The translations under genes and the position numbers were made by a program. DNA of 4,239 nt from a virus (taxonomy: Duplodnaviria > Heunggongvirae > Uroviricota > Caudoviricetes): positions 1 to 4,239 of IMG/VR virus record IMGVR_UViG_648276671_000009; one strand, given 5' to 3'. Below, in pieces: positions 1 to 4,239 of this stretch; within the stretch, counting starts at the first letter, position 1; the number at the start of each line of letters is the position of its first letter. The notes beneath the pieces are model-generated. The model made no database searches. It worked only from the letters and a program-made list of their open reading frames with translations, and was not told where the DNA came from.

Positions 1-246
1 CCGAGAGTATACTGGAAGAACATGGACTGGATAGTCGCCCATAAAGGACAACTGGTGGAGCGGTTGATGCGGCTTAAAAAATTTCCCCGAACGCTTTACG
101 ATCGTAAAAAGTTGAATATCCTGTTAAGAGTGGTTACTACGCCACACAGCTTAAACCCGCCGATGAGCGGGTTTTTTATGCCCGAAAAGTGGCACAGGGC
201 GTTAAACGCGCTGGTGGTTGCGAATGCAGGCCTCTCAGTTTGCTGA
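1..246 (+). CDS. hypothetical protein, 3' portion (5' end outside window); possibly a late-gene regulator (Q-like) by position only
   Basis: Frame 1 is open from position 1 with no in-frame stop until TGA 244-246; the track ORF 22-246 is the internal Met. Followed by an AT-rich spacer, a promoter-like element and the tRNA array, as downstream of Q in lambdoid phages. No diagnostic motif recognised, so the product is a guess. Confidence 0.45.
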   Translation, partial: PRVYWKNMDWIVAHKGQLVERLMRLKKFPRTLYDRKKLNILLRVVTTPHSLNPPMSGFFMPEKWHRALNALVVANAGLSVC

Positions 247-376
247 TTTTTTAGACAAGATTTATTTAGCCAGGCGTATCCAAAATAAAAATAATCGTTA
301 TATATGAGAATTTTTTCTTATTTTTAGAAACAAGAAAAATATATGCGGATATTTACGATTGCTGACGTTATCTTTA

Positions 377-405
377 TTGAGCTCGTTCGAGGGGATTCGT
401 ATTAT
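377..405 (+). promoter_or_regulatory. candidate sigma70 promoter for the tRNA array (possible late promoter pR' analogue)
   Basis: TTGAGC (377-382), 17-nt spacer, TATTAT (400-405); predicted start near 412, about 25 nt upstream of the first tRNA. A -10-like AATGAT lies at 421-426 in the initial transcribed region. Confidence 0.35.
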
Positions 406-436
406 ACGCCGCGCCAGCGCAATGATGCGACGGGCA

Positions 437-513
437 GGCCCTTTAGCTCAGTTGGTCAGAGCGAGCGACTCATAATCGCCAGGTCGCTGGTTCAAATCCA
501 GCAAGGGCCACCA
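437..513 (+). tRNA. tRNA-Ile2 type, anticodon CAU (lysidine type; automated tools often call it tRNA-Met)
   Basis: 77 nt with cloverleaf: acceptor GGCCCTT/AAGGGCC, D-arm GCTC..GAGC, anticodon loop CTCATAA (CAT at 471-473), T-loop TTCAAAT, encoded CCA. Close to my recollection of E. coli ileX. Confidence 0.85.
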
Positions 514-514
514 A

Positions 515-587
515 CCGCCACTAGCTCATCGGGAAGAGCGGCAACTAAATGTTGTAGTACGAGGTTCGAGGCCCCGGTGGCGGTCCA
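515..587 (+). tRNA. tRNA-like element with aberrant anticodon arm (pseudo-tRNA or non-canonical tRNA)
   Basis: 73 nt: perfect 7-bp acceptor stem CCGCCAC/GTGGCGG, D-arm GCTC/GAGC, T-arm with GTTCGAGG, encoded CCA. The anticodon arm GCAAC-TAAAT-GTTGT has only a 5-nt loop, so no canonical anticodon can be assigned. Confidence 0.5.
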
Positions 588-589
588 GT

Positions 590-665
<76 letters not shown>

Positions 666-668
666 TAT

Positions 669-743
<75 letters not shown>

Positions 744-1108
744 GCATTTGAAACAAGCCTTATTGTATTGTGGCACTGGCGTATTTTTTTATTACGTGTG
801 AGCAGGTTGTATTGAAAAAGCATTCTGTTCTCTGGCTATGATTTGAGGCCGGGTGTAGCCTCAGTGCTGATTTTTTTACGGCAGCAGAATGGTGCATTAT
901 CGGTGGAGATTTTGTATTTCCTGGCAGGGGCGGTGATGCATCATTCTGGTGTTGTAAAAGCACCGCAGAGGCGTTCCTCAGTGCGAGGGTGGTTTAAAGA
1001 GTCGGTTTAGCGGGAAACCACAGTATCCATACAGAACGGAATACTTCGGGAGGCACCCGACGCCTCGATTCTATTACAATTAAAAATTCATCCTTTGCAT
1101 TGACCAAC

Positions 1109-1132
1109 CGCCTCCACCAGGCGATTTTTTTA
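1109..1132 (+). terminator. putative rho-independent terminator
   Basis: Stem CGCCT (1109-1113) / AGGCG (1119-1123), loop CCACC, then A plus T7 (1125-1131). Confidence 0.45.
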
Positions 1133-1223
1133 TTCTGAATTCAGTTTCTCCAGGCTCGCTACGGCGGGCCTTTTTCATATCCGCGCCACGCCCGGCGCAC
1201 ATCAAAAACCACAGAGCCTTTCA

Positions 1224-1293
1224 GGGGTGAGCTTACGGGATGGTCAGTGTGACTTTCTCTGTGGGCTGGTCACCCCCGGGCGCAGGCTCACCC
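1224..1293 (+). promoter_or_regulatory. repeat-rich leader upstream of the TerB-like gene (candidate operator or RNA structure)
   Basis: Inverted repeat GGGTGAGC (1225-1232) / GCTCACCC (1286-1293); direct repeat GGGATGGTCAG (1237-1247) / GGGCTGGTCAC (1263-1273); short complementary pair GTGAC (1249-1253) / GTCAC (1269-1273). The RBS AGGA 1301-1304 lies just downstream. Confidence 0.3.
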
Positions 1294-1312
1294 ACTAAAA
1301 GGAAAAGTCACG

Positions 1313-1738
1313 ATGTTTGGTATTTTCAAAAAGAAAGCACGTAAAACTTTCACCGAAGTTAAGAAGTTTGAGAACCGCGACGCAGTGGAGGCGACCGTCT
1401 GGGGCGCGTATTCCATTGCATTTGCCGACGGCACCTGCGATGCGAAAGAAATCGCGGTACTGGAGAAAACCATTGCAGCACTTCCTGCTTTTGCGCCGTT
1501 CTCCGGTGAGATTGCACAAATGAGTGCAAATATCCGCGCCCGTTATGAAGCGTCGCCGCGTTCAGCCAATGCCGAAGCCCTCCGTCAGCTGGCTGATGTC
1601 GCCGGTACTGATGACGCGGTGAATGTGCTGTGCCTGTGTCTGGATATTGCAGACCAGGATGGCATTGGTCCGGATGAAGAAGTGCAACTCAAGAAAATTG
1701 CTCAGGCGCTGCAGTTACCACTGGAGCAGTACCTGTGA
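1313..1738 (+). CDS. TerB-like domain protein (tellurite-resistance TerB fold), 141 aa
   Basis: ATG 1313 preceded by AAAAGGAAAAG RBS. Two copies of the TerB-type helix-pair motif: IAFADGTCDAKEIAVLEKTIAAL and LCLDIADQDGIGPDEEVQLKKIAQAL. Typical E. coli codon usage; overlapping ORFs in other frames look like junk. Confidence 0.7.
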   Translation: MFGIFKKKARKTFTEVKKFENRDAVEATVWGAYSIAFADGTCDAKEIAVLEKTIAALPAFAPFSGEIAQMSANIRARYEASPRSANAEALRQLADVAGTDDAVNVLCLCLDIADQDGIGPDEEVQLKKIAQALQLPLEQYL

Positions 1739-1887
1739 AAAGTGCGCGCCTTGTGCTGGCTGCCATCCTGCTGTTTCTGGTAGTGGCGGTGGATTTCACC
1801 GGACGGCTGATGTCGGTGCTGGCAGATGGTGTGCTGGTGGCGGTGGTGCTGGTCGTGATCCGGCCTTTACTGCGCAAGCCTGAATAA
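1735..1887 (+). CDS. small hydrophobic two-helix membrane peptide (50 aa), translationally coupled to the TerB-like gene
   Basis: GTG 1735-1737 overlaps the upstream stop TGA 1736-1738 (GTGA); GGAG at 1722-1725. Translation VKSARLVLAAILLFLVVAVDFTGRLMSVLADGVLVAVVLVVIRPLLRKPE, stop TAA 1885-1887. Below the track's length cut-off. An alternative ATG start at 1810 would give a 25-aa product. Confidence 0.45.
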   Translation: MKSARLVLAAILLFLVVAVDFTGRLMSVLADGVLVAVVLVVIRPLLRKPE

Positions 1888-1896
1888 CACCACACA

Positions 1897-1919
1897 AAAG
1901 GCATCTGCGGGTGCCTTTT
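1897..1919 (+). terminator. putative terminator hairpin (first of a tandem pair)
   Basis: 9-bp stem AAAGGCATC / GGTGCCTTT with tetraloop TGCG, ending in TTTT. Confidence 0.45.
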
Positions 1920-1938
1920 ACGGGGTGTTGTTTTTTAC

Positions 1939-1960
1939 GGGCCGCTGGTGGCCCTTTTTT
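1939..1960 (+). terminator. rho-independent terminator
   Basis: Stem GGGCC (1939-1943) / GGCCC (1950-1954), loop GCTGGT, followed by T6 (1955-1960). Confidence 0.7.
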
Positions 1961-1978
1961 ATTTACAGGAGAAAAAGT

Positions 1979-2373
1979 ATGTCTGAACCCTTGTCCGGCT
2001 CCGGTACGGCTGCGGCGCTCGGTGGGGCGACGGTATTCGGGCTGTTTACCGGGACGGATTTCGGGATTGTGTTTGGCGCGTTCGCCGGGGCGTTATTTGT
2101 GGCAACGATCCACAGGCAATTTCAGCCTGGCGGGTGGCAGCGCATTTTCTGGTGTCGTTCATTATCGGCGTGCTGGGCGCAGAGGTGCTGGCATCCTTGC
2201 TGGTAAAGCATACGGAGTTTGACGGTGCGCCTGTCGACGCATTGTGTGCCGTGCTGGTTTCGGTGGTGTCGGTGAAGATTCTGTCGTTCATCCACCAGCA
2301 GGATATCGCATCACTGGTGTCCGGCCTGTTCTCCCGTCTGCGTGGCGGAGGAGGTGGCGGCAATGTTAAGTAA
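1979..2373 (+). pseudogene. class I-like holin (3 TM) interrupted by a 1-nt frameshift in a G-run near 2129-2136; intact gene would encode about 131 aa
   Basis: ATG 1979 with AGGAG RBS. Frame 2 gives MSEPLSGSGTAAALGGATVFGLFTGTDFGIVFGAFAGALFVATIHRQ and then W/C/R-rich nonsense. Frame 1 from about 2134 gives two clean helices (AAHFLVSFIIGVLGAEVLASLLV, ALCAVLVSVVSVKILSFI) and a tail ending RGGGGGGNVK, stop TAA 2371-2373. The span is 395 nt, which is 396 (132 codons) with one added base; the junction is ggcgggtgg. Confidence 0.6.
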
Positions 2374-2638
2374 CCTTCCCGGATTGCTGAATGTGGCGGT
2401 ATGCACGGTTATCGTGCTGACGCTCTTTTTTTATCGTCGTCGTGACTCCAGACATAAACCGCTGATGTCATGGCTGGCCTGGCTGCTGATGCTGCTGTAT
2501 GCCTTTGCACCCCTCAGCTATCTGTGTGGTCGCCCGTTAGCAACGGGCTGGCTGGAAGTGTTTTTTAATCTGCTGTTCTGCGTGCTGGTGATACGTGCAC
2601 GCGGGAACGTCGCAAGAATCTTTCCATTGTTGAGGTGA
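2363..2638 (+). CDS. holin-like / antiholin-like membrane protein (3 predicted TM), 91 aa
   Basis: ATG 2363 preceded by GGAGGAGG; overlaps the upstream stop by 11 nt. Hydrophobic segments LLNVAVCTVIVLTLFFY, LMSWLAWLLMLLYAFAPLSYL and WLEVFFNLLFCVLVI, with a basic C-terminus. Stop TGA 2636-2638 sits 2 nt before the endolysin start. Confidence 0.7.
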   Translation: MLSNLPGLLNVAVCTVIVLTLFFYRRRDSRHKPLMSWLAWLLMLLYAFAPLSYLCGRPLATGWLEVFFNLLFCVLVIRARGNVARIFPLLR

Positions 2639-2640
2639 AT

Positions 2641-3018
2641 ATGTCGGGTAAATTCAGATTCAGCCGTCGTAGTGAAAAAAATCTGGAGGGCGTCAAACCA
2701 CAGCTGGTTGCTGTCGTTCGCCGTGCGCTGGAACTGTCGGAGGTTGATTTCGGTATTACGGAAGGCCTGCGCACGAAAGAACGCCAGAAGCAGCTGGTCG
2801 CGGAAGGGAAAAGCCAGACCATGAACAGCCGCCACCTGACCGGTGATGCGGTGGATGTTGTTGCCTGGGTTGGCAGTCAGGTGTCATGGGACTGGCCTCT
2901 GTACGAGAAAATCGCGCAGGCATTTAAGCAGGCTGCCGCAGAGCTGGGAACTGCCATCGAATGGGGCGGGGACTGGCGGACGCTTAAAGACGGCCCACAT
3001 TTTCAATTGAAGCGATAG
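2641..3018 (+). CDS. endolysin, peptidase M15 family (L-alanyl-D-glutamate endopeptidase, T5 Lys-like), 125 aa
   Basis: ATG 2641 with GAGGTG RBS. Zn-peptidase motifs SRHLTGDAVDV, WGGDW and DGPHFQL (His/Asp/His ligands). Lies immediately after two holin-like genes. Confidence 0.9.
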   Translation: MSGKFRFSRRSEKNLEGVKPQLVAVVRRALELSEVDFGITEGLRTKERQKQLVAEGKSQTMNSRHLTGDAVDVVAWVGSQVSWDWPLYEKIAQAFKQAAAELGTAIEWGGDWRTLKDGPHFQLKR

Positions 3019-3035
3019 CCTGCAAAACATACAGG

Positions 3036-3058
3036 GCCGCCATGAGCGGCTTTTTTAT
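3036..3058 (+). terminator. rho-independent terminator after the endolysin
   Basis: Stem GCCGC (3036-3040) / GCGGC (3046-3050), loop CATGA, then TTTTTTATT. Confidence 0.65.
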
Positions 3059-3088
3059 TGCTCAAAAAAAGAAAGAACGGAGGTACGT

Positions 3089-3370
3089 ATGTACGCACTG
3101 AAAAAAATCACGGTAACGGAAGATGGGCGTCAGGTTGAAGAAGTGCATGTTCTGGGGAATATGTATCGCCTGGAATTTTACCCGCGCAACACTCACCTTG
3201 CTGCCCGGGTGGAGTATTGCCGGGATGGAAATGTGCCATGCATTTCGGTGGAAAAAACGGATGAAGCCTACATCACCACGCTGGCGGGTGACACGGTGCG
3301 TTGTATCTGTCGCGGTAACAGTAAAGCCCGGGATGAAATAGCAAAATGTCGCAACACTACTGATAAATAA
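3089..3370 (+). CDS. hypothetical Cys-rich soluble protein, 93 aa
   Basis: ATG 3089 with GGAGG at 3079-3083 (5-nt spacing). Five Cys (44, 51, 72, 74, 87) including a C-x-C; no TM segment or signal peptide. Not recognised as Rz. Confidence 0.7.
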   Translation: MYALKKITVTEDGRQVEEVHVLGNMYRLEFYPRNTHLAARVEYCRDGNVPCISVEKTDEAYITTLAGDTVRCICRGNSKARDEIAKCRNTTDK

Positions 3371-3376
3371 AAAGTC

Positions 3377-3409
3377 AAAACCCCGGCTGGGGGAACAGTC
3401 CGGGGTTTT
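3377..3409 (+). terminator. strong, probably bidirectional, terminator
   Basis: Perfect 10-bp stem AAAACCCCGG (3377-3386) / CCGGGGTTTT (3400-3409) with a 13-nt loop; U-rich 3' arm on the + strand and a T-run also follows on the - strand. Confidence 0.7.
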
Positions 3410-3443
3410 GTGTATTCTGACCTTGAGTAAGGCAAGGAAGAAC

Positions 3444-3626
3444 ATGGAGAAGTATAAACGAATTCTGTTGAGGTTGACTATGAAAAACGGCCTTGAATTG
3501 AAAGCGCCTGTAACTGATGACATCAGCAGAGCGGTGGCTTTTGCTATTAAGTGGGTGGCGGTTGGCATCGCCGTGTCTCCGATGCTGTATGGGCTGGCAA
3601 AATTGATTGTTGCTCTGAAATCGTGA
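3444..3626 (+). CDS. small membrane protein with C-terminal TM helix, 60 aa (alternative start ATG 3480 gives 48 aa)
   Basis: ATG 3444 after AAGGAAG; the alternative ATG 3480 follows GAGG with 6-nt spacing. Hydrophobic C-terminus AVAFAIKWVAVGIAVSPMLYGLAKLIVAL. Stop TGA 3624-3626 is 8 nt before the next start. Confidence 0.5.
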   Translation: MEKYKRILLRLTMKNGLELKAPVTDDISRAVAFAIKWVAVGIAVSPMLYGLAKLIVALKS

Positions 3627-3634
3627 GTGGTGAT

Positions 3635-3817
3635 ATGACGCGAAAACACTGGACACACAGAATGCCGCGAACGGCGGCGAAATGGGCACTGGTAGCGATA
3701 CTGCTGCCTTTTTTATTGGTGGGGTGCGTCAGCCTGGATAAGGCGCGTCAGGTTATTCACATAGCAGAGCAGGTCTGCGAAATTGTCGACAGTGTCCGGC
3801 AGTGTATGCAGAACTGA
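3635..3817 (+). CDS. small predicted lipoprotein, 60 aa precursor with about 30-aa mature part (alternative start ATG 3662)
   Basis: Signal peptide with positive n-region, hydrophobic core WALVAILLPFL and lipobox LVGC; mature part CVSLDKARQVIHIAEQVCEIVDSVRQCMQN has 3 Cys and is not proline-rich, so unlike Rz1. Confidence 0.6.
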   Translation: MTRKHWTHRMPRTAAKWALVAILLPFLLVGCVSLDKARQVIHIAEQVCEIVDSVRQCMQN

Positions 3818-3829
3818 ACGCCTGTGAGC

Positions 3830-3889
3830 GCAGAATATTTTGCTGAAAAATGTCGGTGATTACGCTGTCCGGAAAGCATGAAATTCTGC
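3830..3889. repeat. imperfect 15-nt inverted repeat separated by about 30 nt (candidate operator or RNA stem-loop)
   Basis: GCAGAATATTTTGCT (3830-3844) pairs with AGCATGAAATTCTGC (3875-3889) at 13 of 15 positions. Confidence 0.4.
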
Positions 3890-3987
3890 ATTTGTGGTCA
3901 TTCAATAAAATAAATTCTTTCTGCTGCTGTAAATACACAAATGTGAACCGAACCCGGTGCGGCGACGGGCTTCGATATGAGGAGACG

Positions 3988-4239
3988 ATGATGGAAAAAA
4001 CAGAAAACAAACCGATTGTAATTGGTGCTGATGCTGCTCCGTTTAAGTTTGAGTTGTCTCAACTGGTGGAGATGCGCATCAGTGATGAATGGGGTGAGGT
4101 TAAAGCCCGCGCGCAGTATGCGGATGGCGAAAACCAGTACTTACTCCACTACAAAGCTGCTGATGGTCGCGCCACGACGGAGTGGTTTGGTGAGTCAATG
4201 CTGGAAGCAACAGAAGATGATGATCATCCGGGCTGGTCC
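3988..4239 (+). CDS. hypothetical acidic protein, N-terminal 84 aa (3' end outside window)
   Basis: ATGATG 3988-3993 preceded by GAGGAG; frame open to the window end. Begins MMEKTENKPIVIGADAAPFKFELSQLVEMRISDEWGEV. Absent from the track because no stop is reached. Not similar to lambda Nu1 as I recall it. Confidence 0.6.
   Translation, partial: MMEKTENKPIVIGADAAPFKFELSQLVEMRISDEWGEVKARAQYADGENQYLLHYKAADGRATTEWFGESMLEATEDDDHPGWS

Follow-up and report, generated by a model that had tools for sequence, protein, structure and literature searches.

The 4,239-nt stretch analyzed here, hereafter the window (IMG/VR record IMGVR_UViG_648276671_000009, positions 1 to 4,239), is taken up entirely by the late region of an Escherichia prophage that is lambdoid and P27-like. 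In order, it carries the end of an upstream gene, a homologue of the late promoter pR', an array of transfer RNA (tRNA) genes, the element that is the subject of this work, two intrinsic terminators and the lysis genes. The upstream gene corresponds to the Q antiterminator in the closest relative, Escherichia coli A36. We consider it probable that the element (744-1131) forms the 3' trailer of this prophage's tRNA operon, as a single multi-domain structured RNA of the + strand whose 3' fragment would become an Hfq-dependent small RNA (sRNA) after processing. The element and the terminators that close it are composed as follows:

772-868, + strand: domain D1, a four-way junction (closing helix 772-778/862-868; hairpin 1, 779-797; hairpin M, 798-832; hairpin 2, 834-860)
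871-877, + strand: conserved U7 run, 2 nt after the D1 closing helix and also part of the 5' base of D2
873-960, + strand: domain D2, a nearly perfect, G-U-rich hairpin of ~32 bp, the strongest feature of the region and overlooked in a first-pass annotation of this DNA
968-1066, + strand: domain D3, a five-way junction with an STnc100-like core, on which the RNAalifold consensus and the single-sequence minimum free energy (MFE) fold agree (P1, 968-973/1061-1066; P2, 976-979/985-988; P3, 989-994/1016-1021; P4, 1022-1045; P5, 1046-1050/1056-1060, loop AGGCA)
1067-1106, + strand: A/U-rich unstructured linker, a candidate Hfq-binding and seed region
1107-1131, + strand: intrinsic terminator ending the element, found by terminator scan and kept in all homologues
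1152-1176, + strand: second, back-up intrinsic terminator, 5' of the TerB/DUF3927/holin genes, found by terminator scan and also present in A36

Of 5,426 complete E. coli genomes, 435 (~8%) contain homologues of window positions 745-1150, at 70-96.5% identity; in 228 of the 435, at least 80% of the query is covered. Almost all of these homologues are unannotated and some reside on plasmids; only two phage records contain the element, and IMG/VR holds about 100 more copies. The carriers of this lineage are P27-like and LT-II/Stx2e-type prophages of enterotoxigenic, Shiga toxin-producing and commensal strains. In the window, the tRNA-Gly gene ends at 743 and the terminator follows at 1107-1131 on the same strand, a layout repeated in all inspected loci: in the chromosomal and phage loci that were opened, the element lies directly 3' of a phage tRNA gene (Gly in nearly all, Arg in one), on the late-gene strand, with the TerB/holin cluster 3' of it. 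Beyond Escherichia, the host range was surveyed solely with an exact scan for the 17-mer TTCGGGAGGCACCCGAC in one genome per species, which would miss diverged copies; 39 of its 40 matches fell in unrelated, mostly G+C-rich taxa and were read as chance, and the element was found only in Escherichia ruysiae, where BLAST and model R2 confirmed it. A literature search for the signature sequence and the locus returned nothing.

The plasmid copies and a number of doubled loci deserve mention in their own right. About 40 plasmid locations appeared in the E. coli search, with a degenerate tRNA and the element on large plasmids; these copies adjoin a DMT transporter gene, outside any recognizable prophage late operon. 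On plasmid pRM11911 (locus L010, 2816-3290), the element follows a degenerate tRNA among insertion sequence and transposon (IS3/Tn3) remnants. In phage SerU-LTIIb, the unit formed by tRNA-Thr/Arg, tRNA-Gly and structured trailer occurs twice in diverged form (locus L003, 1122-1662 and 3028-3640), and a doubled unit is likewise seen in loci L058, L080, L136 and L154. These diverged copies suggest that the unit was duplicated or recombined as a whole.

The first-pass annotation had found no credible open reading frame (ORF) at 744-1108, and this holds. The window ORFs of the region (843-1010 on the + strand, 760-963 and 994-1107 on the - strand) have no Pfam match, nor have the 'hypothetical proteins' annotated over homologues. 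Among the 45 full-length homologues listed, 11 have no ORF of at least 40 aa on either strand and the ORFs of the others vary in frame, strand and position, while indels of 1-2 nt separate close homologues (for example in a T-run of 6-8). With no frame conserved across homologues and no family match, a protein-coding reading was rejected and the element (744-1135) is shown to be non-coding. One could suppose that a cargo (moron) gene has decayed here, or that the region encodes a small protein: in phiP27, stx2e occupies the slot 3' of the tRNAs, LT-II genes are found in the adjoining lysis region of related prophages, and some annotators called hypothetical ORFs over the element. The called ORFs, however, differ in strand, frame and length, many homologues lack any ORF of at least 40 aa, frameshifting indels distinguish close relatives and the substitutions in the helices are compensatory. 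Position and covariation contradict this explanation, which we regard as most improbable, and conservation together with compensatory changes refutes the possibility, raised in the first-pass annotation, of poorly conserved, degraded remnant DNA. A tRNA or tmRNA is not recognized either, since ARAGORN makes no call in 744-1135 and the Rfam tRNA model gives no match there at E up to 10. The idea that D1 and D3, compact junctions beside tRNA genes, are tRNA-like was discarded for want of ARAGORN or Rfam tRNA support and because their arm sizes do not fit.

What the region does conserve is RNA structure. Against shuffled sequences, the whole region folds with z = -4.19 on the + strand and -1.01 on the - strand; the corresponding values are -2.74 and -1.75 for D1, and -8.12 and -2.97 for D2. 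The covariance analysis across homologous prophages that the first-pass annotation had proposed uncovered compensatory changes in D1, D2 and D3, and each of these three structured + strand domains is shown to be kept by them. As controls, pairs were counted with the partners shifted along the alignment ('slid'). The 5' module has 96.6% of its cells paired versus 32-53% in the slid controls, and 15 double-sided pairs versus 4-7; the 3' module, D3, has 95.0% versus 40-47%, and 11 double-sided pairs versus 1-4. The frequent switches from G-U to A-U or G-C set the strand as +, since they make sense only there.

D1 is closed by the helix GGCACUG/CAGUGCU, and its junction has almost no linker nucleotides. 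Imposing the closing helix as a constraint leaves the MFE energy unchanged in 25 of 27 diverse homologues, nearly all of which show the junction, and the sequences of hairpins M and 2 differ much between lineages while the junction is kept. On alignment A8, 93.7% of the D1 cells are paired versus 35-52% when slid, with changes on both sides in 20 of 32 pairs; on A3, a MAFFT alignment, pairing in the closing helix reaches 99.5%. Together with the U7 run, this helix could cause a pause or partial termination of transcription. For D2, a plain MAFFT alignment gives 97.6% paired cells and nine pairs in which both sides have changed; switches from G-U to A-U or G-C are numerous. In a search of all Rfam families at a permissive threshold, neither D1 nor D2 matched a family, and the microRNA-precursor matches merely mirror the long D2 hairpin. 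In D3, the P1 helix occurs as GGCG/CGCC, GGUG/CACC, GACG/CGUC and GAUG/CAUC.

These domains replace in part the three stems first noticed in the sequence, two of which had been placed ~10 nt away from their true positions. The 7-bp stem GTGGTTT/AAACCAC is exact at 989-995/1015-1021 with its 19-nt loop and corresponds to P3, in which 98.6% of the cells are paired, with G-U changes only. The stem TGAGGC/GCCTCA does exist and is followed by GTGCTGA and then T7 (871-877), but it lies at 844-849/858-863 instead of 834-853. Across homologues 88.9% of its cells are paired and it is gapped in 6-9 of 27 sequences; a rival fold is better supported, in which GCC pairs with the GGC of GGCUAU (834-839) and CA belongs to the closing helix 862-868/772-778. 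As a terminator, the stem at 844-863 with its U7 was set aside as a weak alternative fold on the basis of the 7-nt spacer and of the comparative data. The letters of the third stem, GGAGGC/GCCTCG, are present at 1049-1054/1062-1067, not at 1040-1058, and only 5 bp of it can pair. It does not outperform shuffled controls, and in 18 of 36 sequences the pair that closes its loop is broken; the covariation links instead CGCCUC (1061-1066) with GAGGCG (968-973), and CGGG (1047-1050) with CCCG (1056-1059).

The 3' part of the element resembles a known family of prophage sRNAs. STnc100, identical to EcOnc27, is located in the pR' moron site and bound by Hfq (PMC4104026); EcOnc27/STnc100, including STnc100_4, is expressed from many EDL933 prophages and was verified by northern blot (PMC5331693), and it lies 75 nt downstream of stx2B (PMC12370729). 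The Rfam model of STnc100 (RF02076) aligns over its full length to 941-1135 (18.5 bits, E = 0.035 for a 221-nt stretch), with the CGGGAGGCACCCG hairpin at high posterior probability and the outer helix placed confidently. In the search of all Rfam families this was the only meaningful match, and none was obtained in the element for AsxR, AgvB, Esr41, RtT, C4 or tRNA. True STnc100 copies score 81-208 bits with RF02076; PA28 and H-19B each carry one 3' of stx, 06-00048 and a Klebsiella phage carry the others, and the CGGGAGGCACCCG hairpin is identical in these copies, which include those of Stx1, Stx2 and Klebsiella phages. Conversely, model R1, built only from the core of the element, finds three true STnc100 copies full-length (L011:4238-4358, L013:3528-3649 and L015:2998-3113) with rough E-values of 2.4e-4 to 5.4e-4, is marginal on the STnc100 of H-19B (L014, E = 0.72) and finds nothing else in those loci. 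The two models thus detect each other, weakly.

The likeness extends to architecture and location. Both families occupy the late strand of the interval that separates Q/pR' from the lysis genes in lambdoid prophages, and both have a closing helix around several hairpins, including the identical CGGGAGGCACCCG hairpin and a CCYC-GUGCG-GRGG hairpin, followed by an A/U-rich single-stranded tail or linker and an intrinsic terminator. Just 5' of P1, each has a hairpin and then a UGUUAAAAA / UUGUAAAAG stretch. The differences from STnc100 (also sRNA103 of enterohaemorrhagic E. coli prophages) are nonetheless substantial. Outside the hairpin motif there is no BLAST-level similarity; P1 reads AUGGUG/CACCAU in STnc100 but GAGGYG/CRCCUC in the element; STnc100 follows a toxin or moron gene, whereas the element follows tRNA genes and two extra structured domains; the Rfam search detected no convergent antisense partner of the AsxR/AgvB type for the element; and the element was found only in Escherichia, in the exact 17-mer scan of one genome per species. 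In true STnc100 copies (PA28, L013 3450-3500; L011 4190-4235), the 3' arm of the preceding hairpin consists of the first ~15 nt of the Rfam model, and the published 11-nt 'complementarity to stxB' of STnc100 may merit a second look given this hairpin.

A more distant relative may be PasD, an Hfq-dependent sRNA of enteropathogenic E. coli (PMC8550237) reported to share STnc100 ancestry (bioRxiv 10.64898/2026.05.13.724894). PasD1 and PasD2 of strain E2348/69 likewise belong to a prophage late region and show the same order of closing helix (GCAUGGUG...CGCCAUGC), seed-bearing linker and terminator. The linker of the element, for which no structure is predicted, occupies the same position as the PasD region holding the predicted seed. 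PasD differs in that its signature hairpin is degenerate, without the ACCCG half, in that the model of the element misses it and in that it follows a DUF3927 gene and not tRNAs; when the locus of the element was compared with the PasA, PasC and PasD loci of E2348/69, this gene was the only match. In sum, D3 with linker and terminator (~964-1131) is shown by sequence and structure comparison to be a divergent relative of STnc100/EcOnc27 and, distantly, of PasD, through a homology that is reciprocal but weak. The suggestion in the first-pass annotation that the region might encode a prophage sRNA gains support from this shared architecture, signature hairpin, position, strand and terminator, with the same reservation as to the weakness of the homology.

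The setting of the element within the late operon bears on how it could be transcribed. Outside the element, the window contains the following:

96-124, + strand: homologue of pR' of Shiga toxin (Stx) phages, TTTACG-16 nt-TATCCT
155-183, + strand: first terminator-like hairpin (155-177) and T-run after pR', a candidate tR', conserved with Stx phages and phiP27
226-250, + strand: second terminator-like hairpin after pR', found by terminator scan
377-415, + strand: candidate promoter for the tRNA array (TTGAGC-17-TATTAT, then the G+C-rich discriminator ACGCCGCGCC), from promoter scan and direct reading
437-743, + strand: prophage tRNA array called by ARAGORN, comprising Met-CAT, a doubtful call at 515-587, Thr-TGT and Gly-TCC
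3' of both terminators: a TerB-family gene and a DUF3927 gene, then two holin genes and an M15 endolysin gene

Positions 96-183 align with the segment following Q in Stx1 and Stx2 phages and in phiP27, which has the form TTTACG-16-TAT(C/A)(C/T)T with a hairpin and T-run. The pR' homologue itself aligns with PA28 (L013:1392-1419) and H-19B directly after Q, its hexamers being identical to those scored promoter-like in PA28, and the terminator scan lists the equivalent of the 155-183 hairpin in A36 and PA28. By this alignment, the pR' homologue fixes the predicted start of the Q-dependent transcript at 96-124. The first-pass annotation had likened 744-1108 to the region of lambdoid phages that yields 6S-type short late transcripts and contains the terminator that Q must override. 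That analogy belongs at 96-250, because pR' and the first terminator-like hairpins (155-177 and 226-250) are there, 5' of the tRNAs; a StxS- or 6S-type short transcript of this prophage would arise at 96-183 / 226-250.

In favour of interpreting the element as a Q antitermination target or as a 6S/StxS-type transcript, it belongs to the late operon and is closed by the terminators at 1107-1131 and 1152-1176. Neither of them is tR', yet Q-modified polymerase has to pass both to reach the lysis genes. The element resembles λ 6S and StxS as a prophage RNA whose defining terminator is read through by that polymerase. In the λ and 82 mechanism, Q acts at a promoter-proximal pause and not on a distant RNA. 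The element starts only at 744: four tRNA calls precede it, tRNA genes take up ~300 nt between it and the sites at 96-250, and its start lies ~610 nt 3' of the place where 6S and StxS would begin, at pR' right after Q. Since its position and covariation contradict it, we find this interpretation scarcely credible. StxS is Hfq-bound and released by RNase E, and its Sakai precursor measures 258 nt (PMC7547250); counting from pR' of PA28, we infer from the distances that a precursor of this length ends at the terminator L013:1657-1686.

The promoter-like site at 377-415 ends ~20 nt 5' of tRNA-Met, and relatives possess other promoter-like sites 5' of their tRNAs. These sites suggest that tRNAs and trailer are transcribed in lysogens, with transcription stopping at the tandem terminators. 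ACGCCGCGCC resembles the G+C-rich discriminator of stringently controlled tRNA and rRNA promoters. The Rfam tRNA model backs three of the four ARAGORN calls. At 515-587, ARAGORN proposes a tRNA-Phe with the unusual anticodon AAA, on which the Rfam model is silent at E up to 1; a degenerate tRNA is probable here, because a tRNA-Arg fills the slot in relatives.

We propose that in the lysogen the tRNAs and trailer would be transcribed from a promoter just 5' of the array (candidate 377-415), and during lytic growth from pR' under Q. Without Q, transcription would end at 1107-1131, with 1152-1176 as back-up, so that the holin and endolysin genes would be shielded from read-through. Maturation of the tRNAs would release the trailer. 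A long duplex such as D2 is the type of substrate cut by RNase III; a cut in or next to D2, by this enzyme or by RNase E in the AU-rich AAAAGCACC (~957-965), would yield a 3' fragment of ~165-170 nt consisting of D3, linker and terminator. This fragment would operate as an Hfq-dependent base-pairing sRNA like STnc100, EcOnc27 and PasD, by means of its single-stranded linker. Trailer RNAs of tRNA operons have precedents in 3'ETS-leuZ and RtT of E. coli, the latter an Rfam family, and in RNAs C and D, two stable RNAs from the tRNA cluster of phage T4. Like them, the element is a non-coding RNA between the last tRNA and the operon terminator, presumably freed by tRNA processing; it differs from them in lacking sequence or Rfam similarity (there is no RtT match), in its larger size and in its three covarying domains.

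Instead of a processing product, the sRNA could be an independent gene with its own internal promoter; PasD, and possibly STnc100, would seem to be of this kind. A TATTAA-like -10 stands a few nt 5' of the mapped 5' end of PasD (5' coordinate from the supplement of PMC8550237), STnc100 has TGTTAAAAA at the equivalent place and the window has the invariant GUGUUGUAAA there. This window motif, however, lacks the key -10 positions (A2, T6) and a -35 partner, and it corresponds to the paired 3' arm of D2, whose partner is conserved too. The promoter scan of 744-1135 finds no convincing internal sigma-70 promoter; a separate sRNA promoter is thus unsupported, and the processing route outlined above is likewise a guess. 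We judge an independent gene distinctly unlikely.

An alternative with somewhat more weight, though still unlikely in our estimation, is a purely cis-acting trailer that stabilizes the tRNA precursor and guides its processing and, with the tandem terminators, insulates the lysis genes from the tRNA promoter, no sRNA acting in trans. The constant attachment of the element to a phage tRNA and the presence of tandem terminators agree with it, and so does modularity: the genomes 503440 and 06-00048 have the 5' part (D1/D2) and the terminator without the 3' core, D3. No target complementarity within the window was found. Against a cis role alone, the terminator would suffice for insulation, and ~300 nt of junctions kept by covariation far exceed this need; D3, linker and terminator are built like an Hfq-bound, discretely expressed sRNA family (PMC4104026, PMC5331693); and in ZYB62, D3 stands behind a divergent D1 and a replaced D2 hairpin. 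Most likely, D1 and D2 are separable modules serving processing or stability, or an independent stable RNA.

A bolder reading, possible but to be held tentatively, is that D1 and D2 (772-960) form an undescribed autonomous structured-RNA family that travels with phage tRNA-Gly and has a function of its own, and that the D3 core of the STnc100 superfamily is a protein- or ligand-binding domain. If this were true, D1 and D2 might for example mimic or decoy nucleases directed at tRNA or double-stranded RNA, or partner phage tRNAs against host defence, and would find a parallel in the unexplained stable RNAs encoded with the tRNAs of T4; the five-way-junction core of the STnc100 superfamily would then not merely be a passive seed scaffold.

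Several observations weigh against our preferred interpretation of a processed tRNA-operon trailer yielding an Hfq-dependent sRNA. The 18.5 bits obtained with RF02076 fall short of the gathering score of 47 bits, which no homologue of the element reaches, and R1 has no PasD match in loci L016 and L017 at E up to 1. The linker (1067-1108) forms its best duplex with another part of the window at -22.7 kcal/mol, against a mean of -22.5 for shuffled sequences, so no cis target emerges. The terminator stem at 1107-1131 is CGCCU/AGGCG in the window and AACCGCC/GGCGGUU in relatives, and with GGCGA versus GGCGG it is weakened here, before a U7 at 1125-1131. The lack of a convincing promoter in the scan of 744-1135 belongs here as well. 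The covariation counts come from related sequences and the controls leave part of the kinship effect, while those of D1 use A8, an alignment fitted to a model and including three weak antisense matches. Lastly, we infer, in each case, the transcription, the processing and the trans-action of the element.

Some further features were noted elsewhere in the window. The 135-nt leader of the TerB-family gene (1177-1312) forms a long imperfect hairpin with z ~ -2.4 on either strand, its arms being CCACAGAG.../...CUCUGUGG and GGGUGAGC.../...GCUCACCC. Between the DUF3927 gene and the first holin gene (1893-1960), terminator-like hairpins lie back to back on opposite strands, at 1922-1893 (-) and 1939-1954 (+). 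Relative to A36, the holin gene at 1978-2373 has a 1-nt deletion at ~2105-2115 (GAT-CCACAGG versus GATGCCGCAGG), which splits the first holin into the overlapping ORFs 1925-2206 and 2134-2373 and reflects either a defective prophage or a sequencing error. A sub-threshold Rfam match to the P22 sar antisense RNA at 3373-3459 on the - strand (22.5 bits, E = 0.37), probably due to chance, covers the terminator region after a 93-aa ORF.

It is known that Hfq-dependent sRNAs which rewire host regulation come from prophage late regions in pathogenic E. coli, among them AsxR, AgvB, StxS, EcOnc27/STnc100 and the Pas RNAs. The element extends the STnc100 superfamily to a lineage missed by annotation, sub-threshold in Rfam and unannotated in nearly all inspected genomes. 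It also relocates pR' and the first terminator-like hairpins for this class of prophages, and provides seed alignments and structures for new covariance models. D1 and D2 add two further covarying RNA domains without known counterpart. The physical tie of an sRNA to a phage tRNA operon suggests a route of biogenesis resembling that of RNAs from a 3' external transcribed spacer (3'ETS).

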